Of a DNA stretch of 64,000 bases, positions 40,421 to 49,742 are shown one piece after another; position 1 is the stretch's first letter; each line of letters starts with the position of its first letter. The stretch comes from Shigella phage JK32: the sequence record MK962753.1, one strand, 5' to 3'. The notes under the pieces were generated by a model. It was not told the origin of the DNA, did no database searches, and saw only the letters and a list, made by a program, of their open reading frames with translations. The translations under genes and the position numbers were made by a program.

Positions 40421-42265
40421 ATGTTAAGAAACCGTGCAATCAAGTCAACCCCTAATTTCATTCAAGGGGATATGGGAAATATTACCTCAAGAGATAATCA
40501 TGCATTAATGGAGCATGATATTCCAACAATCTCTGACACAATTAACAGGGATCTAATTACACCAGTAATTGATTTTATCAACGAATGCGATAATATTCTA
40601 CTCGATGGAATCGGGACGGTCGCAGATACTGTTGATATTATCGAACGGAAAGCTGATAATGCAACCGAAATTTCTAATTACGCCAGTGAAAAAGCTATCG
40701 AGGCATTGGCAAAATCAAAAGAAAGTTTGACGAAAGCGGAAGAAGCAAACACGGTAGCAAATAGTGTTGCTGGTGATGCGCAAACAGCATTAACTAAAGC
40801 TAATGAGGCTAAAACGCTAGCAGAAAGTCTTAAAACAAAAGTTGATGGTTATGACACCAGAATCACAGAAATTGATTCTAAGGCAACTACAGCTCAATCT
40901 GACGCGTCTTTAGCAAAAGATAAAGCTGATGCACTGGAAACAACGGTCAATAGCGAGAAAACTAAACTGACAGCATTGACTACTAAGGTCGATACTCTAG
41001 AAGGTGATATTATCGATGCTGTGGATCTGGCTGAACAAGCAAAGAATAAAGCCGATTCAGTAGAAACACAAGCCATTAATAACACCACAGAGATTACCGC
41101 TTTAAAAGGCCGTGTATCAACTGTAGAGACACAATCAGCAGAAGCCAATAGACTGGCTACCCAAGCCGATAAAAATGCGTCTACGGCGCTCTCAGACGTT
41201 TCTACGTTATCTTCAAAGGTTGATGATGTTAAGGCTACAGCCGACGCAGCAAGCGCAAGCGTGGCGGGATTAACTCAGGATATCGGAGAAGTGCGGACAC
41301 TGGCAGAAACAGCCACGACAAACATCACAACTCTTTCCGGTAAAGTTGATACCATAAAGACAACCGCAGATACAAACAAGACCAATATTGAAGCATTAAC
41401 CACTCAGGTTAATGAACACACAACTAAGATCGGAGAGTTGGAAACTGGTGTATCTAACGTTAATGGTGAACTTACCACGGTTCAGGAAACCGCAGCTAAT
41501 GCACTTCAAAAGGCCACCAGCGCAGAAACAAAGGCAGGTAATGTAGAGACACTAATTAATAGTCTTACACCGCGTGTGGACGCGTTAGAAGGCGATTTAG
41601 GTACATTAGAGAGCACTGTTGCTGATTTATCTCCTAAAGTGACAGCAGCAACCGAAAAAGCGACTATGGCATTCAACAAAGCAACTGCCTTAGAGCAAAA
41701 AACGGAATCGATGGAAACAGAAATCGAAGATGTTCGCCTCGATGCTGGGACCGCGATGGCAGAAGCGACACAAGCTAATAGTGAGATCGCCACGTTAAAA
41801 ACTAAAGTCGGTGAACTGGAAAGCGATGTTGACACAGCCGATACAATCGCAAATGAAGCATTAGCAGTTGCACAAAGGGCGGATACTAATGCAAATACAG
41901 CCAATACAAATCTTGCAACGATAACACCAATCGTGGAAAGATTGAATGGTGCATTTGTCGGTATGATTCGAATCAGATACAAGGAAACTCGAACTATAAC
42001 GAAAGCTGGCGGCAACACTCGTCGTAAGTTGATAATCCCACAAGTTCGAAAAGGTGATATGGCATTTGCGGCATTTTTAAACGTACCAGATAAACGAGAT
42101 AGTATTCTGTTTAACTGTATGATTCCTGTCGACGGCGAAGTTCACATGGCAATAAAAAATCTGCATACCGCTGCATTAGATTTTAACGATTGGGTTCAAA
42201 TATTGGTATTCCAGACAAGTACGGGTAATCCTATTGTTGACCCAGAAACAAGCCTAACAAACTAA
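40421..42265 (+). CDS. putative coiled-coil fiber protein with tandem repeats and distinct C-terminal domain
   Basis: 614 aa; about 400 aa of repetitive Ala/Thr/Glu-rich heptad sequence; N-terminus paralogous to ORF 39440. Confidence 0.45.
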   Translation: MLRNRAIKSTPNFIQGDMGNITSRDNHALMEHDIPTISDTINRDLITPVIDFINECDNILLDGIGTVADTVDIIERKADNATEISNYASEKAIEALAKSKESLTKAEEANTVANSVAGDAQTALTKANEAKTLAESLKTKVDGYDTRITEIDSKATTAQSDASLAKDKADALETTVNSEKTKLTALTTKVDTLEGDIIDAVDLAEQAKNKADSVETQAINNTTEITALKGRVSTVETQSAEANRLATQADKNASTALSDVSTLSSKVDDVKATADAASASVAGLTQDIGEVRTLAETATTNITTLSGKVDTIKTTADTNKTNIEALTTQVNEHTTKIGELETGVSNVNGELTTVQETAANALQKATSAETKAGNVETLINSLTPRVDALEGDLGTLESTVADLSPKVTAATEKATMAFNKATALEQKTESMETEIEDVRLDAGTAMAEATQANSEIATLKTKVGELESDVDTADTIANEALAVAQRADTNANTANTNLATITPIVERLNGAFVGMIRIRYKETRTITKAGGNTRRKLIIPQVRKGDMAFAAFLNVPDKRDSILFNCMIPVDGEVHMAIKNLHTAALDFNDWVQILVFQTSTGNPIVDPETSLTN

Positions 42266-42530: not shown

Positions 42531-43772
42531 ATGGCACAGATTTTCAATGAACTGTTAAAGGAATCGACTTCCTCAGTAGCAAACCAGACAGCAAGACCAC
42601 AATTATTGGCACTTACCCGCGCGGTTAACAACCTGATTTTCTCCGATCTGGTGGCAATTCAGCCAACAAATCAGCCTATTTGTGCATTATTCGGACTTCG
42701 TTATGTTAACCGTGATGGTCAAATGACTTATCGTACCGCAGGAACGTATGGTGGTGCGGCTGGTAATCGTGATGTTTTTGAAGATTTTCAGAAAGATAAA
42801 GAATATCAGGTCGGTGATCATTTCAAATTTGATAATGTTGTATATGAAGTGATTACAGAAGGTGCAGTAGGACAGGATATTTCTACCGAAGAAGAAGCGA
42901 TCTTTAAGGGAGTAGTGTCAAATAAAATTCGTTTCTTTAGTGATTATGCACCGACTGAATATTTCGAAGATGCAAACACTGAAATTTCTACTACCGATTT
43001 TGATTTTGAAAAATGGCAAGTTAATGTCGGATCTCGTAAACTGAAAACAGAATTTACTACCGAATTGATGCAAGACCTGGAAGCAAACCAGATGAACTCT
43101 GAAAATACCGTTTTGGATCTTCTTGCTACCGTTGCATCCGAAGAAATCAATAAAGATATTATCCAGAAACTGATTACGGTATCAACTCGTTATAAAGTTA
43201 AGAGCATTACACCTGATGGCGTTCTTTCACTGGTTAACGTTCAGGACGCACCAGCACAAGCGCGTGAACTTTATCGCTATGCATGTGAAATGAGTAATCA
43301 AATGCTTCGCACTTCGTCTTTCGGTGGTACTTATGTTCTTGCATCTTCTCGTGTTGTTGGCCTCCTGCAAGCTAGTGGCTGGATGGAAGAAACTGACAAT
43401 GCACTAAGTGAAGGTCGTTTACGTTGTGGTTTAGAAGTTTATGCGGACACTGTAACCCCGTTTGATTATATGATCGTTGGTTGTAAGCATATGGTTGGTG
43501 ATATGGAGAGCGTAGGTTCTCTGTTCTACTCCCCATATACAGAATCAGACGGAGCGGGTGCATATAAGAGCATCATCGATCCTAATAGCTTCAACCATAA
43601 AGTAGCGATTATGAATAGATATGCTCTTTCTGTCAACCCATACACAACCAAAGCTGATCAAGAAAACAACCAAGTAATCAAGGGTGACGAGTGGGGCAAA
43701 CTTGCCGGACGTTCAGAAATGTCCTACATGCTGGGTATAGAACTGCCACCGCTTGAGATTGACAACGCTTAA
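42531..43772 (+). CDS. 24: head vertex protein
   Basis: 413 aa; N-terminus MAQIFNELLKESTSS...LLALTRAV closely resembles T4 gp24; paralog of gp23. Confidence 0.9.
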   Translation: MAQIFNELLKESTSSVANQTARPQLLALTRAVNNLIFSDLVAIQPTNQPICALFGLRYVNRDGQMTYRTAGTYGGAAGNRDVFEDFQKDKEYQVGDHFKFDNVVYEVITEGAVGQDISTEEEAIFKGVVSNKIRFFSDYAPTEYFEDANTEISTTDFDFEKWQVNVGSRKLKTEFTTELMQDLEANQMNSENTVLDLLATVASEEINKDIIQKLITVSTRYKVKSITPDGVLSLVNVQDAPAQARELYRYACEMSNQMLRTSSFGGTYVLASSRVVGLLQASGWMEETDNALSEGRLRCGLEVYADTVTPFDYMIVGCKHMVGDMESVGSLFYSPYTESDGAGAYKSIIDPNSFNHKVAIMNRYALSVNPYTTKADQENNQVIKGDEWGKLAGRSEMSYMLGIELPPLEIDNA

Positions 43773-44360
43773 CTAAATATCTAACCAAGACAAATCAGAT
43801 CCGCCCAAGATTTTTTCAACGGCGGATCTATTTTCTTGATGATACAAGTTAAAGCATGGTATCCCATGTCTACGAGCAACATAAACAGCAATTCGAGTCC
43901 CGCCAGAAACAATCCCATTAACTTCTTTCGCCCAAAATAACACACAATCTACAGGATCATCAAGTGTCTCACCTAAGACTTGAGCAACATTTCTAGAAAA
44001 CAGATTTTGCATGTATAACGGTATAGAACGAGGATTATCATAAACGTGTTCTAATTCATCCATCGCCAGATTTTTTTGTTCTAAGGTTTGCCATGCAATC
44101 ACATCATGACCGTTATGCTTGTGGTCATAAAACTTCCAATTTGGAATGAAAATTTTTCTATAATCTGGATCGTAATACTTCATGAAAGCATTGTCCATAC
44201 CGTAAGCCCCTCCAGAATGCGCTACAACGCGATTTTCTGACAATACCCTCCCAATGGTACTAGCCATTATCAAAATGTCGCTAGGCGCTTTTCTAGAGCC
44301 GATTAAAGCACATCTACGAAGCGGTTTTACTCCAACTAGATCTTGTAACTGGTCAAACAT
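43773..44360 (-). CDS. DprA/Smf-like (SLOG-type Rossmann) protein
   Basis: 195 aa; motifs ALIGSRKAP and HSGGAYGMDNA resemble the DprA Rossmann-domain GSR and SGxAxGxD motifs. Confidence 0.45.
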   Translation of the reverse strand: MFDQLQDLVGVKPLRRCALIGSRKAPSDILIMASTIGRVLSENRVVAHSGGAYGMDNAFMKYYDPDYRKIFIPNWKFYDHKHNGHDVIAWQTLEQKNLAMDELEHVYDNPRSIPLYMQNLFSRNVAQVLGETLDDPVDCVLFWAKEVNGIVSGGTRIAVYVARRHGIPCFNLYHQENRSAVEKILGGSDLSWLDI

Positions 44361-44383
44361 AATATTTCCTCCATAGAAAGCAA

Positions 44384-44412
44384 TATCATACTACAAGTTA
44401 ATAACAAATACA
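44384..44412 (-). promoter_or_regulatory. sigma70-like promoter candidate (TTGTAT-17-TATGAT)
   Basis: Minus strand, about 25 nt upstream of the DprA-like gene RBS. Confidence 0.4.
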
Positions 44413-44480
44413 AGTATCCGCGTAGCGGAAGCGAGCACAGCGAGCAATAAAACACTTCCAGTAATTGATTAATAAATGTT

Positions 44481-44540
44481 CGAAACAAATTTTTATTATT
44501 CTATAAGATAAGTCTTCGTTTTGATCATAATTTAATCATA
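44481..44540. repeat. intergenic repeat copy B
   Basis: Shares AAACAAATTTTTATTATTCTA with 3890..3910 and TCTTCGTTTTGATCATAATTTAATCA with 44663..44688. Confidence 0.6.
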
Positions 44541-44609
44541 CATGTAAAAACTACACAAAAGGATATCGCTTCGCGAACTCCTACGGAGTATAACATTTGT
44601 GTTACAATA

Positions 44610-44628
44610 TGTATTGATTAATAATTAA
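44610..44628. promoter_or_regulatory. perfect 19-bp palindrome TTGATTAAT-A-ATTAATCAA (possible dimeric protein-binding site)
   Basis: Exact inverted repeat; a further half-site TTGATTAAT at 44464..44472. Confidence 0.4.
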
Positions 44629-44630
44629 TC

Positions 44631-44690
44631 AAAGATACATTTTCTATGTTCTAAAGATCTTTCTTCGTTTTGATCATAATTTAATCAAAC
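44631..44690. repeat. intergenic repeat copy C
   Basis: 24-nt identity TTCTAAAGATCTTTCTTCGTTTTG with 3906..3929 and 26-nt identity with copy B. Confidence 0.6.
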
Positions 44691-44735
44691 AGTATTAATA
44701 TTGTGCACATGTAAACTAAAATTATGTTAATAACA

Positions 44736-44761
44736 GATACAAAAAAGCCGCCCCGAAGGAC
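44736..44761 (-). terminator. rho-independent terminator
   Basis: AGCCGCCCCGAAGGACGGCT hairpin with T-run on minus strand; member of a three-copy terminator family. Confidence 0.5.
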
Positions 44762-44773
44762 GGCTAATGTTAA

Positions 44774-45925: not shown

Positions 45926-47167
45926 TTAAGCAGGAGGCGTTTCACGAATGCGTAGAACTCGCTCTAACGTCTCTCGGTCCAGTTTATGGAAATCTTTGGA
46001 CTGATACATGAAACCATTGCGAGATTCCATGCAAGTGCAATCACTATATTTTTCTTCCGCTGCTGCGATCGTCTCCAGATCTTTGGCGTACTTGCTGGTT
46101 GAATAAACTTCTCGGTGACGCCACTCTAAACCAGCCTCATTGAATTTAACAATCTCGTCAAATACCCACCATCCAATATAGATGAATGAAGTTTTGCGCC
46201 ACGGGATCGGGTGCACGTAACGGAACATTTTATGAAGAGATTCAACAACTTCCATTGAACACTTTCTGCTTGTATGTGCTGCAACTTCTACTGTTGCGCT
46301 TTCGATCTGTTGGTATAATTTAGCAACACACCAGAATTTGGCTGTGTCATCGTAAGTAGCACGCTCTTTGAACAGATGACCGTCTGGCATGATAGAAAAT
46401 CCTTCCAGTGCTTCGCCGACCTCACTACCGATCAGAGTCGGTGACGGCTGTCCTTCACGTTGCAAATACCAGTTATGTTTGATAGTCAATTTAGGCATAC
46501 CGCTAGAATCGCCTACAATGTCCTCTGATACAACATAATTAAGTAAGATTTCCTTACCTAGTGCTACGGTCTTTGATTCCACCACATCCTGATCTACGCT
46601 CATTGTAGCCAGCATGATTTTAGTCGATGCACTATCGGCTGAATCTTCCGATTCGCCCCATACTTTGACAGTATACACACCGTTGTTATCTGCTGTAAAT
46701 TCTTGGATCGTGATATCCTGTGTTGTGTCTATAACTTCTTCGCCCTTACTCCAACTATAATGTAGTTCATAGTTGTCTGTTGGAGTCTTCCCGCCAGAGA
46801 ATTTGACGGTTGCGTGTAATTCTACGTCTGTGTGAGTAGGAACATAGAATTGCGGCGGTTCGGTGATCTTAACGATTAATTCAGCTTCTTCCATACGGAA
46901 AACGTCAGATTCTACAGATTCCCCGCTGTCGGTATCTTGTACGGTGACTTTATAGTTACCCGCATTTTCACTTGTTGCACCTGCTACAGTTAGCGTAGCG
47001 GTGTTATTTTCATGCGGTTTGTTGTCTTTTGTCCATGTATAGGACAAATTGCTGGGTAATGGTTCGTCACCTGCTACAGTCGCTGTTAATGTGAAACCAT
47101 CTCCAGCAAGAAAACATCTTTTGTTCGATTTAATTGATACTGTGAAAGCCATATAAAGCCACTCCAT
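45926..47167 (-). CDS. hoc: Hoc-like outer capsid decoration protein (paralog 1)
   Basis: 413 aa; Ig-like repeats; C-terminal YVHPIPWRKTSFIYIGWWVFDEI...ESRNGF matches the T4 Hoc capsid-binding C-terminus. Confidence 0.7.
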   Translation of the reverse strand: MEWLYMAFTVSIKSNKRCFLAGDGFTLTATVAGDEPLPSNLSYTWTKDNKPHENNTATLTVAGATSENAGNYKVTVQDTDSGESVESDVFRMEEAELIVKITEPPQFYVPTHTDVELHATVKFSGGKTPTDNYELHYSWSKGEEVIDTTQDITIQEFTADNNGVYTVKVWGESEDSADSASTKIMLATMSVDQDVVESKTVALGKEILLNYVVSEDIVGDSSGMPKLTIKHNWYLQREGQPSPTLIGSEVGEALEGFSIMPDGHLFKERATYDDTAKFWCVAKLYQQIESATVEVAAHTSRKCSMEVVESLHKMFRYVHPIPWRKTSFIYIGWWVFDEIVKFNEAGLEWRHREVYSTSKYAKDLETIAAAEEKYSDCTCMESRNGFMYQSKDFHKLDRETLERVLRIRETPPA

Positions 47168-47201: not shown

Positions 47202-49742
47202 TTAAAATAGTTGAGTACCATCAACCAGATAACCATTACGAGATTCCAATACATGAGTATTAGAATAGTGATGCAACGAGGCTGCAATAGTCTCGATCTC
47301 GTCCGGGTATTTGGTGTGTTCAAAGTCTTCTAACCAGTTAAGCCCTTCGCGGTTGCAACGGTCAATTTCATCAAGTACCCAATAGCCTTGATACTGGAAC
47401 GAAGTACGACGCCACGGAATCGGGTGTACATAGCGTTTTAATTTCGCGGTAGTAAACACTACACGAACTTTTTCACTATGTTTAACATGTCCTTCGTCGT
47501 CAGTAACTTCTGCATAATAGGTTGCTTGATGTGTCTCCTTGCTAATTTGTTCTTTAGGAATAGTATACACCTTACTATTCGCGCCAGGAATAACAGTATC
47601 TTTACCGCCCTGAATTTTATGCCACTTCCATTGAACTTCTTTTTCATCATCAACGTGTTCGGCATGAGCTTCTAAGGTAATATCCTGTTTCTGTCCTTCT
47701 TTAGCAACCACATCCACCGGATGTTTCAGAATATTGATATTTGAATGATGAGTCATTGTCACTAATGCAGGATTAGATTCAATGGTATTCTCACCAGCCG
47801 TAATTACCGCTGTGTAGCTGCCTACGTCAGACGGTTTTGCGTGATCAATAATCAACACATCTGAATTTGCACCAGGAATAATTTCACCGTCTTTTTTCCA
47901 TTGATATGATGGTTTAATACCAATAGATGTTTGTGCGGCAGCGTGTAACATAATTTTTTCATTATATTTCACATGCGCATCTTGTGGGTGAGTTGTTATT
48001 GCTAGGTCATTTGGAACAACCGTTACATCGTCGGAGATCAACACCCTAACCGCTTCTGACATTTTAGAAACTCGATGTTCACCGAATCCAGCCGATACAC
48101 GGCATGTATAAACGCCAGTAGATGTTAATTGTGCATGATCTTCGCCATATACATTTCGTTGTTCAATTCCTGCTGGGAAAAGATCCTCACCATCTTTAAA
48201 CCAACGGTAACGAACTGGCAAAGCATCATTAGACGTTGCCTTGATGGTAAGCGCCCATTGTCCACCGGAGCGAACTTTAACTGCTTTCGGTTGTACAGTG
48301 ATCTCTAACGTTGCCTTTGAGTTATCAACTGTCACCTGAACTGCATTAGACTCAGCCGAAATTCTGTGATTCTGGATACCCATAGAAACTTTACATTTAT
48401 ATTGACCTTCGTCTGCTTTAGTGATTGAGGAAAAATGCAAAGTTTTAGATGTTTTTCCAGGAATCAACTCATCATTTTTATACCACTGATAATCAAGTTT
48501 ATAATGTTCGTAGTCTGTCTCTGCTTCACAAATAAGAGTTTGTGAGGAACTAACTCGAACATTGGTTAACTGCTGTGGTTGTTGAGTGATTCGAATTGTT
48601 GGCGCAGCACCGACAAGAAGATCCGCTTCTTGTGATTCTGAAACCATATTATCACCGTAAGTCACTTTTGCTTTATATTTCGCCTGATTTAATTCCGCAG
48701 TTGCTGGTGCAATGTGGAGATCTTTATTAGTTGCGCCAACAATTGGTTTAAATTCATCTTCACCATTTTTCTTGATGTACCATTGAACTTTTACTGGTTC
48801 ATAGTTTGTTGCATAATCAACACTGAACAAACCTAAAGCACCAGCACCCACATTTATTGTGAGTGGTTGTTTAGTGAATCGAAAGAACGATCGACCTTCG
48901 ACTGTAACGTGACAATCTTTTGAATAGATCGTTGTTTCTGCTTGACGAACTTCAAGACGCCATACACCCTCGTCTTTTTTCGTGACGTGGGTTATAGTTA
49001 ATGCAGTGCCGTCTTGATCCAACACCATCCTATCGTTGTGAATCCACACATATGATAAAGGACGAGTTTTGTCATCGGTTGTCACCTGTGCTTGTAGTTC
49101 AAGTCTTCCATCTTCTGGAACTGTAACCGCTGATGGGTAATGTTCCTGAATATGAACTTTAGGAGCATCTTTATTTTGTTCCACTACTACAGGACTGATC
49201 CAATAGTGAGAACGTGCATCATCGGTAACAAATACCTTACAAGTATAGTTGCCAAAATCCTCATAACCAACTCGATCTACATGCACGTTTTTTTGACGGA
49301 TTTTATCTGGATTTAACTGAATGTGGTTTTTATACCAAATAGTATCAAATTGCTTGTTATCTTCGATGAACGGAGTAACAAAAATATCCAATTCTTCGCC
49401 TAAACGCTTATAAATGTAGGTCGGAGATTGATCCTGTGGTGCAAGGAAGGTGCGACGTTCAACAAGAATAGGCTTAATATCAACCGATTCAAGCGGATTA
49501 TCTTTCAGCTTAACTTTCGCTGTATACGTGCCGAATTGATCTTGAGTCATTTCAGCAATATACAGAGATTGATCTGGTTCTGCAACCTGATCTGATGGTA
49601 CGCTTTGACCGTTTAGCTTCCATTCTACGATATAGTCTTTAAAATCTGCGGTACTTACTACGAGCTTAAGAACAAGTTCATGTCCTACAGACGCGTAGAC
49701 CGGACCCATAGTTTGATGTAAAATATTGATTTTATCAGACAT
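47202..49742 (-). CDS. hoc: Hoc-like outer capsid decoration protein, expanded (paralog 2)
   Basis: 846 aa; multiple tandem Ig-like segments; C-terminal LKRYVHPIPWRRTSFQYQGYWVLDEI...ESRNGY Hoc-type domain. Confidence 0.7.
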   Translation of the reverse strand: MSDKINILHQTMGPVYASVGHELVLKLVVSTADFKDYIVEWKLNGQSVPSDQVAEPDQSLYIAEMTQDQFGTYTAKVKLKDNPLESVDIKPILVERRTFLAPQDQSPTYIYKRLGEELDIFVTPFIEDNKQFDTIWYKNHIQLNPDKIRQKNVHVDRVGYEDFGNYTCKVFVTDDARSHYWISPVVVEQNKDAPKVHIQEHYPSAVTVPEDGRLELQAQVTTDDKTRPLSYVWIHNDRMVLDQDGTALTITHVTKKDEGVWRLEVRQAETTIYSKDCHVTVEGRSFFRFTKQPLTINVGAGALGLFSVDYATNYEPVKVQWYIKKNGEDEFKPIVGATNKDLHIAPATAELNQAKYKAKVTYGDNMVSESQEADLLVGAAPTIRITQQPQQLTNVRVSSSQTLICEAETDYEHYKLDYQWYKNDELIPGKTSKTLHFSSITKADEGQYKCKVSMGIQNHRISAESNAVQVTVDNSKATLEITVQPKAVKVRSGGQWALTIKATSNDALPVRYRWFKDGEDLFPAGIEQRNVYGEDHAQLTSTGVYTCRVSAGFGEHRVSKMSEAVRVLISDDVTVVPNDLAITTHPQDAHVKYNEKIMLHAAAQTSIGIKPSYQWKKDGEIIPGANSDVLIIDHAKPSDVGSYTAVITAGENTIESNPALVTMTHHSNINILKHPVDVVAKEGQKQDITLEAHAEHVDDEKEVQWKWHKIQGGKDTVIPGANSKVYTIPKEQISKETHQATYYAEVTDDEGHVKHSEKVRVVFTTAKLKRYVHPIPWRRTSFQYQGYWVLDEIDRCNREGLNWLEDFEHTKYPDEIETIAASLHHYSNTHVLESRNGYLVDGTQLF

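Follow-up and report, generated by a model that had tools for sequence, protein, structure and literature searches.

DprA (Smf) proteins are bacterial proteins that bind single-stranded DNA (ssDNA) and load RecA, acting in natural transformation. In Helicobacter pylori DprA (HpDprA), the crystal structure of a complex with dT35 and mutagenesis showed that the ssDNA-binding DprA domain is marked by two signatures, G-[STA]-R and [FLY]-x-x-R-[ND] (Wang et al.; PMC3950713). In this complex, a thymine of the ssDNA is inserted in the protein and held by Arg52, Phe140, Arg143, Asn144 and Gly164. Among these residues, Phe140, Arg143 and Asn144 touch the inserted base, and the affinity for ssDNA drops about 315-fold with R52E, about 173-fold with R143E and about 15-fold with F140E (PMC3950713). 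Related folds are found in the LOG and PpnN phosphoribohydrolases (cytokinin-type), LOG being characterized by a PGGxGTxxE motif that carries the catalytic Glu (PMC3950713). They are also found in ShosA and PsyrA, the DprA-like antitoxins of phosphoribosyltransferase (PRTase) toxin-antitoxin defence systems, in YpsA, and in the SLOG domain of the Thoeris effector ThsA, a sensor of the cyclic ADP-ribose (cADPR) isomer 3'cADPR. The present study concerns a DprA-like gene of Shigella phage JK32, located on the minus strand at positions 43773..44360 of a stretch of 64,000 nucleotides (nt) from record MK962753.1, hereafter the window. Its product, a single-domain SLOG Rossmann protein of 195 amino acids (aa), belongs to the DprA branch (family PHROG 768) and is named here mini-DprA.

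Conserved Motifs and Predicted Fold

The initial annotation of this gene had drawn attention to a GSR and a SGGAYGMD motif in a protein of 195 aa, and had likened it to the Rossmann proteins of the DprA/SLOG type. Residue conservation was evaluated with 132 representatives of the family, mutually at most 50% identical. Both motifs were recovered, and their residues are invariant or nearly so in this set. The first one, G21-S22-R23 (44292..44300, minus strand), lies in the loop following strand 1 and corresponds to DprA signature 1, G-[STA]-R; in the alignment, GSR pairs with the GTR of HpDprA, R23 being matched with Arg52. The second one, S49-G-G-A-Y-G-M-D56 (44193..44216, minus strand), is the glycine-rich loop after strand 2 and corresponds to the SGxAxGID motif of DprA. 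In addition, the helix preceding strand 4 carries L120-F-S-R123-N124-V-A-Q127 (43980..44003, minus strand), which matches DprA signature 2, [FLY]-x-x-R-[ND]; this equivalence was deduced from the order of the motifs and the secondary structure prediction rather than from a residue-level superposition. Finally, the loop after strand 4 contains G153-G-T155-R-I-A158 (43887..43904, minus strand), resembling both the SGSxxTA of DprA and the GGxGTxxE of LOG. G21, G50, D56, R123, G153, G154 and T155 are invariant among the representatives, and R23, P26, S49, A52, G54, P73, N124, Q127, G130, A158, A162 and N171 are conserved in at least 90% of them. The two published ssDNA-binding signatures of DprA are therefore present in the phage protein and conserved across the 132 members. 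The same holds for three glycine-rich loops (GSR, SGGAxGxD and GGT, following strands 1, 2 and 4), nucleotide-binding elements characteristic of SLOG proteins.

When the sequence of Escherichia coli Smf is read against the phage protein, five motifs are collinear: VVGSR with LIGSR, SGLARGID with SGGAYGMD, IAVLGNGLN with IFIPNWKFY, FPRRNRIISGL with LFSRNVAQVLG, and SGSLVTA...GREVFAL with GGTRIAV...GIPCFNL (Smf given first). It should be noted that hhalign, run with the family profile against the single Smf sequence, aligned motifs 1 and 2 only, with a probability of 5.5%, and that the equivalence of motifs 3 to 5 corresponds to collinearity by reading, without a scored alignment. The similarity extends over the whole domain and goes beyond the two short motifs noted initially.

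An AlphaFold2 model was built from 33 sequences, with a mean predicted local distance difference test score (pLDDT) of 94.1 and a predicted template modelling score (pTM) of 0.89. The fold is a three-layer alpha/beta Rossmannoid one, and its neighbours in structural comparisons are SLOG proteins. Among the PDB entries searched with Foldseek, the top nine matches are all HpDprA, and neither the model nor this search pointed to an unrelated fold. Structural match scores to the model were 13.1 for DprA (3maj), 12.8 for a molybdenum cofactor carrier protein (2iz5), 12.6 for HpDprA (4ljk), 12.0 for a LOG-like protein (1rcu), 11.2 for ShosA (8zva), 11.1 for YpsA (2nx2) and 9.8 for the SLOG domain of ThsA (7uxs). 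The Rossmann fold of the DprA/SLOG type proposed in the initial annotation is thus borne out by the family profile, the structure model and the Foldseek search.

These data also bear on the possibility that mini-DprA is an enzyme. A LOG-type nucleotide N-glycosidase (phosphoribohydrolase) would free a base, for instance in order to remodel nucleotide pools or to remove a modified base. The invariant polar residues D56, R123 and T155, which line the predicted pocket, would suit such an activity, and mini-DprA shares with LOG and PpnN the fold and the GGxGT phosphate loop. However, the catalytic Glu of PGGxGTxxE is replaced, since position 158 (in S-G-G-T-R-I-A158) is an Ala in at least 90% of the members. 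Moreover, Pfam LOG (PF03641) is matched by none of the 132 representatives, and in a search of the family profile against PDB sequences LOG was reached with an E value of 0.096, versus 8e-5 for DprA. Because the catalytic Glu is missing and Pfam LOG is never matched, the LOG family is excluded, and a phosphoribohydrolase activity appears highly improbable.

A Separate Family Within the DprA Branch

As judged from its sequence, mini-DprA belongs to PHROG 768 over its full length, residues 15-187 being aligned with positions 4-181 of the 191-position profile (E 2e-60). The name of this family, "DprA-like DNA recombination-mediator protein," is an annotation, and the function that it conveys is a predicted one. 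The family is large. Using tblastn, a homologue was found in 1342 phage records, 1169 of which cover at least 80% of the protein; the hosts of these phages include Klebsiella, Pseudomonas, Escherichia, Aeromonas, Vibrio, Acinetobacter and others. When 1.84 billion cluster representatives were searched with a profile, 4315 proteins, each standing for one cluster at 50% identity, were obtained at E<=1e-3 and 2731 at E<=1e-10, the majority being stand-alone proteins of about 180 aa. The closest relative of the JK32 protein, 99.5% identical, is encoded by Escherichia phage UPWr_E1, of the genus Krischvirus (RB49/phi1 group), and the window itself belongs to a Krischvirus, that is, an RB49-like T4-type phage.

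The initial annotation had suggested that DprA, LOG and other SLOG families be distinguished. DprA is the nearest of them. Pfam DNA_processg_A (PF02481) matches the phage protein with 22.3 bits, under the cut-off of 29.6 and over residues 15-60 only, and TIGR00732 gives 14.4 bits for a cut-off of 191.15. Across the 132 representatives, DNA_processg_A is matched below threshold by 61, and "SLOG cluster 4" by seven. YpsA (DUF1273) and YAcAr (PF10686) are matched by none of them at E up to 1e-3, and the phage protein has no match to either at E up to 10. Within the family, YAcAr occurs solely as a separate extra domain in two giant proteins (P0040 and P0042). The SLOG domain of ThsA and YpsA are more distant matches, and mini-DprA is not fused to SIR2, TIR or another effector.

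In spite of the five collinear motifs and the two ssDNA signatures in common with DprA/Smf, mini-DprA departs from it in several respects. With about 190 aa, it is a bare Rossmann core having only 14 residues before strand 1 and about 25 after strand 5; neither a SAM domain, nor a C-terminal winged-helix (DML1) domain, nor any other second domain was found in it. Its Pfam and TIGRFAM scores are under the cut-offs, with a sequence alignment confined to residues 15-60. It has a family-specific residue, Q127, as well as a helical insert between strands 3 and 4 that differs from that of DprA. Moreover, the family resides in phages and conjugative elements, whereas DprA belongs to competence regulons. 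Altogether, mini-DprA is near-certainly a stand-alone Rossmann domain of the SLOG superfamily that corresponds to the nucleotide-pocket core of DprA without SAM and winged-helix domains. Within the DprA branch of SLOG domains, it represents a family of its own, and is neither a canonical DprA nor a LOG enzyme.

Genomic Associations in Phages

The phage contexts were analysed with a set of 88 loci comprising 80 IMG/VR loci, six annotated phage loci, the UPWr_E1 locus and the window; open reading frames (ORFs) were clustered and the clusters named by Pfam. RNA ligase 2 (Rnl2; RNA_ligase plus T4_Rnl2_C) is encoded within 8 kb of mini-DprA in 23 of these loci, which represent nine of the 51 clusters of SLOG proteins at 70% identity, and directly upstream of it in seven such clusters (L002 4012-5555; L004 2994-4543; L003 3446-5564; also L012, L015-L028 and L052). 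In nearly all adjacent pairs, the stop codon of one gene and the start codon of the other overlap or closely adjoin each other (-22 to +9 nt), one pair being 109 nt apart. The pair occupies two distinct positions in the genomes. It is found in the slot between gene 24 and hoc in Gelderlandvirus STP4-a, Klebsiella phage phi1_146055 and other T4-like phages, and in an early region of Klebsiella/Raoultella phages of 174-180 kb (e.g., vB_KpnM_Lychee_ER51), where an NAMPT gene follows four genes later. No description of this pairing was found in the literature covered. In the gene 24/hoc slot, T4 has rnlB without mini-DprA, and Krischvirus has mini-DprA without rnlB. In phiAS5-like phages, the usual position of Rnl2 is held by a protein of 372-391 aa (phrog_2319). 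This protein, for which no Pfam or PDB match was obtained, adjoins or lies near mini-DprA in five 70%-identity clusters (L005 2750-3880; L029, where an ORF of 372 aa immediately precedes the SLOG gene; L038 9533-10687; L049).

Other genes encountered within 8 kb are those of a GapR-like DNA-binding protein (13 of the 88 loci), the peptidyl-tRNA hydrolase PTH2 (12), and the RNA-repair nucleotidyltransferase RlaP (4). NAMPT, a nicotinamide adenine dinucleotide (NAD) salvage enzyme, is present in 13 loci and a Macro gene in five.

Mini-DprA is also fused to other domains. Five cases of fusion to NADAR were observed, including giants of about 1480 aa that also bear YAcAr and cluster-4 SLOG domains, as well as two fusions to DUF4326, one to RecJ (DHH, DHHA1, RecJ_OB; P0161) and one to an AlkB-like 2-oxoglutarate (2OG) oxygenase in a 1446-aa protein (L085). 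RecJ and AlkB families act on single-stranded or damaged nucleic acid. For the extensions found in P0085, P0117 and others, PHROG, Pfam and PDB searches gave only families without a function. Giant SLOG-containing proteins of 1269-3405 aa are encoded by uncultured phages (L048 414-10631; L085 5643-9983; L040 5319-9128; P0040; P0042); there, mini-DprA is accompanied, among others, by NADAR, additional SLOG domains of the YAcAr and cluster-4 types, an oxygenase resembling AlkB or a PD-(D/E)XK nuclease, and large parts of these proteins are devoid of recognisable domains.

With respect to these associations, the Krischvirus arrangement is an exception, in which mini-DprA stands alone behind a strong terminator. 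Searches of the window for Rnl2, NAMPT, Macro, PTH2, NADAR and DUF4326 gave nothing significant, and Rnl2 was found neither in the window nor in the remaining 100 kb and 11 kb of UPWr_E1. Outside the region corresponding to the window, UPWr_E1 encodes the NADAR protein gp30.3/AdfN next to DNA ligase (L171 33934-34413; Pfam Phage_30_3, E 6.5e-38) and, separately, a protein with a Macro domain (L172 6176-6631); Rnl1 and Pnk are present according to its annotation. The NADAR and Macro proteins of UPWr_E1 correspond, in stand-alone form, to domains found in fusion with mini-DprA in other phages or plasmids.

Bacterial and Plasmid Homologues

Bacterial genomes, one per species, were scanned with an alignment of a sub-family, the relatives found coming from a branch about 30-35% identical to the JK32 protein. 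At least 239 relatives from many phyla were confirmed. Their neighbours include a type IV secretion system coupling protein (at least eight loci), a Strawberry-notch-type helicase (at least seven), a CHC2 primase zinc ribbon (at least six), and a single-stranded DNA-binding protein (SSB), RadC and ParB (at least five each). These counts are lower bounds and derive from a few related element families; in high-GC loci, the simple ORF caller used gave shadow ORFs. In PLSDB, a homologue was found on 28 plasmids, 12 of them typed as conjugative, and Macro fusions occur on two plasmids. On pNL1, the homologue lies 1.5 kb from an SOS-response-associated (SRAP) peptidase and 6 kb from SSB. SRAP peptidases bind abasic sites in ssDNA. 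The bacterial members sit on conjugative plasmids or integrative and conjugative elements (ICEs) (loci L173 5523-7522 for pNL1, L175 3672-6516 and L090-L169). The neighbour set (SSB, SRAP, RdgC, RadC, ParB, primase-type zinc ribbon and coupling protein) is typical of the region that enters the recipient first, as ssDNA.

On an Aromatoleum plasmid, the homologue adjoins RdgC and a DUF1071 protein. This arrangement is one of the arguments for a role akin to that of DprA or ShosA. Mini-DprA would then load RecA or UvsX on ssDNA or, as a mimic of ShosA/PsyrA, would neutralise the PRTase toxin of a ShosTA-type abortive infection system after host shut-off. DprA and ShosA are indeed the best structural matches. 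The antitoxin activity of ShosA requires ssDNA binding, for which the arginines homologous to those of HpDprA are needed (PMC12961424). PADLOC gave weak matches to PsyrA (E 4e-5) and ShosA (E 3.5e-4). These matches, however, span just about 45 residues (14-61). ShosA needs its SAM domain for stability, as well as dimerisation and a surface contacting RecA (PMC12961424), and the SAM domain is absent here. So is the extra C-terminal helix of ShosA and PsyrA. No PRTase gene adjoins mini-DprA in the window, the neighbours being the gp24-type gene and a 145-aa ORF, and mini-DprA is carried by a lytic phage instead of a defence island. Moreover, T4-type phages already possess a UvsX mediator, UvsY, and such a role does not predict the associations with NADAR, DUF4326, Macro and Rnl2. 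A function of the DprA/ShosA kind is consequently regarded as unlikely.

Soluble ADP-Ribose Signals or Single-Stranded Nucleic Acids?

Viral SLOG domains were considered by Iyer, Burroughs and Aravind (2022), who interpreted their links with NADAR, Macro, DUF4326 and NAMPT as reflecting the processing of soluble signals derived from ADP-ribose (ADPr), on the basis of fusions with Macro, NADAR and DUF4326, of co-occurrence in phage genomes and of analogy with LOG and ThsA (PMC9503650). The fusions and co-occurrences of PHROG 768 are the same, and the JK32 gene differs from the rest of this family only in its position, alone next to gene 24 and without the Rnl2 partner of other T4-like genera. 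In this view, mini-DprA may be a sensor, a sponge or a hydrolase of immune signals derived from NAD+ or ADPr, such as cADPR isomers. Acting beside the NADAR, Macro and Nudix enzymes of the phage, it would blunt a TIR/Thoeris-type or another NAD-centred defence. The present analysis, made independently of the published one, recovered these fusions (five with NADAR, two with DUF4326, and those with Macro on plasmids), which argues for such a role, as does the presence of NAMPT and Macro genes near mini-DprA in phages. On the other hand, the conserved residues are exactly those that bind ssDNA in HpDprA, and the lack of the LOG catalytic Glu makes it unlikely that an N-glycosidic bond would be hydrolysed by the mechanism known from SLOG proteins. 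Small-molecule signalling also leaves unexplained why the family is fused to RecJ and AlkB-like domains, is closely coupled to Rnl2 in an operon and has SSB, primase, RdgC and SRAP as neighbours. It should, in addition, be kept in mind that the published view is a prediction. A role in soluble ADPr signalling is therefore considered possible, although rather doubtful.

The tentative preference goes to a non-catalytic pocket that would grip a base of a single-stranded nucleic acid and so assist enzymes of repair or counter-defence, a proposal to which we would give somewhat less than even confidence. Four elements would make up the pocket, namely the loops G21-S-R23, S49-GGAxGxD56 and G153-G-T155 and the helix L120-F-x-R123-N124-x-x-Q127, and one nucleotide base would be held in it, most likely as part of ssDNA or single-stranded RNA. 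We infer that mini-DprA, produced from an independent and probably early transcription unit, would have no catalysis of its own and would serve as a nucleic-acid-binding accessory to partner enzymes. In Krischvirus, the putative partners are encoded separately (the gp30.3/AdfN NADAR hydrolase and the Macro protein); in relatives, they would be the enzymes that are fused to mini-DprA (NADAR, Macro, DUF4326, RecJ, AlkB-like) or co-translated with it (Rnl2). Whereas the fold, the motifs, the size of the family and its genomic associations are observations, the nature of the ligand, the lack of catalysis, the timing of expression and the partners are proposals. The NADAR protein gp30.3/AdfN of phage T4 strips ADPr from guanine in DNA and thereby counters DarTG1 (PMC11825919, PMC11125620).

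Binding of a single-stranded nucleic acid is preferred to soluble ADPr signalling because DprA is the nearest relative by sequence and by structure, because the LOG catalytic residue is absent and because the associations with RecJ, AlkB, Rnl2, SSB and RdgC would otherwise be unexplained. The common property of the partners (RecJ, AlkB, NADAR, Macro, Rnl2, SSB, primase, RdgC and SRAP) is to act on single-stranded or damaged nucleic acid. The median isoelectric point (pI) of the family, 8.5, is also consistent with nucleic acid binding.

Several points nevertheless weigh against this preference. The JK32 protein is slightly acidic, with a pI of 6.4, although this value is not decisive. The conserved pocket is a generic SLOG nucleotide pocket, in which a base belonging to a polymer and a soluble nucleotide such as an ADPr derivative are indistinguishable. 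Leading regions of conjugative elements also bear anti-defence genes. Mini-DprA lacks the SAM and C-terminal domains, which in DprA contribute to stability and to contacts with partners, and high-affinity ssDNA binding by DprA and ShosA requires dimerisation (PMC3950713, PMC12961424). Since no Rnl2 gene was found for the present phage (window and UPWr_E1 searched), the link with this ligase is not directly applicable to it. Finally, literature searches found no experimental study, nor binding or activity data, for any member of the phage DprA-like/SLOG family, and the associations with NADAR, Macro, DUF4326 and NAMPT are those that Iyer, Burroughs and Aravind attribute to soluble signals.

Gene Neighbourhood and Expression Signals in JK32

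Mini-DprA is preceded on the minus strand by a GGAGG Shine-Dalgarno (SD) motif, read from the sequence at 44372-44368, 7 nt before the ATG at 44360. This start codon coincides with the start position in most homologues. A longer form of 238 aa is annotated in UPWr_E1 (L001 5872-6588; PP418985.1 113134-113850). Alignment of the UPWr_E1 and window DNAs shows that a single extra A, inserted between the SD motif and the ATG, fuses an upstream frame to the gene; the 238-aa form is accordingly an artefact of this 1-nt insertion, and the real product has 195 aa.

The slot occupied by mini-DprA is, as the initial annotation had stated, the one between gene 24 and hoc where T4 carries rnlB and small ORFs (order 24, rnlB, 24.2, 24.3, hoc). 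The convergent neighbour, on the plus strand at 42531..43772, is a head protein of the gp23/gp24 family (phrog_138, E 1e-114). Further upstream of mini-DprA, the minus strand encodes a 145-aa ORF, a DUF2774 protein and two tandem Hoc-like head-decoration proteins of 413 and 846 aa (45926..47167 and 47202..49742). The longer Hoc-like protein contains numerous Ig-like repeats, and T4 has only one hoc gene. The gp24-type gene is closely preceded, on the plus strand, by an Ala/Thr-rich ORF of 614 aa with a coiled-coil-like repeat (40421-42265). It has only weak PHROG matches (minor head protein, E 2e-6) and no counterpart in T4, where segD alone lies between genes 23 and 24; it may correspond to an extra capsid-associated fibre.

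The operon on the hoc side is ended by an intrinsic terminator at 44765-44746 (minus strand), with an 8-bp stem including six GC pairs and followed by a T-run. Because this terminator closes the upstream operon, mini-DprA needs a separate promoter. The initial annotation had attributed a sigma70-like promoter to the gene. This attribution is weakly supported, since a consensus scan of the minus strand of the 413-nt upstream spacer (44361-44773) found no site matching at least 9 of the 12 positions. In the whole region, four sites were observed for 6.0 expected by chance. A candidate early promoter cassette was nevertheless identified at 44385..44429 (minus strand). It comprises a stem-loop, TCCGCTACGCGGA (44429-44417), followed by TTGTAT (44413-44408), a 17-nt spacer and TATGAT (44390-44385), these hexamers having been read by eye and matching 8 of 12 positions, below the threshold of the scan.

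Such an arrangement recalls the early-promoter/stem-loop (PeSL) cassettes, which in RB49 and phi1 are found on the flanks of variable genes (PMC2839356). A PeSL is defined by a stop codon, an AT-rich tract, a stem-loop, sigma70-like -35 and -10 elements, an SD motif and an ATG within about 100 bp. At the JK32 locus, the stem-loop, the SD motif and the ATG are present, and the hexamers reach only 8/12. The candidate cassette thus resembles a PeSL in its layout, and its promoter is a putative one.

The 385 nt that follow the terminator are non-coding and nearly identical in UPWr_E1. A non-coding spacer of this length is unusual for a T4-type phage. A 79-nt direct repeat is present in it twice (44464-44542 and 44613-44691), the copies being 73% identical and 149 nt apart, and each stem-loop of the spacer is followed by a 17-nt repeat, TTGTAT[T/C]TGTTATTAAC. 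An Rfam search of the spacer returned nothing relevant, the lone match being TarB over the terminator (21 bits for a cut-off of 80). The spacer may consist of duplicated PeSL cassettes or contain an unannotated small RNA.

Implications for SLOG Proteins and for RNA Ligase 2

At the level of the locus, the result is modest, the JK32 gene being a typical, ordinary member of a large family known from bioinformatics. What the present analysis adds is the placement of this family on the DprA branch and not with LOG or YpsA, the recognition of the second DprA signature, the operon with Rnl2 in sister genera, absent here, and the contexts in conjugative elements. The handling of ssDNA and the metabolism of nucleotide signals, both named in the initial annotation, are the two leading hypotheses. 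Deciding between them would assign a function to thousands of genes and would test the published prediction on viral SLOG domains. It could also explain how the NADAR and Macro hydrolases of phages find their substrates.

The close coupling of mini-DprA and Rnl2 in one operon, observed in several T4-like genera, is relevant to the biological role of this ligase. To our knowledge, this role has remained unsettled since the first description of Rnl2, reportedly by Ho and Shuman in 2002. It may be speculated, as a fairly unlikely scenario, that mini-DprA is a single-strand-targeting partner that docks an ssDNA base carrying damage or ADP-ribosylation, or else a broken RNA, and hands it to NADAR (AdfN) or Macro or, in other T4-like genera, to Rnl2. 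If this were true, mini-DprA would be a counter-defence component against DNA ADP-ribosylation of the DarTG type, and its association with Rnl2 would provide a first clue to the role of this ligase in vivo.

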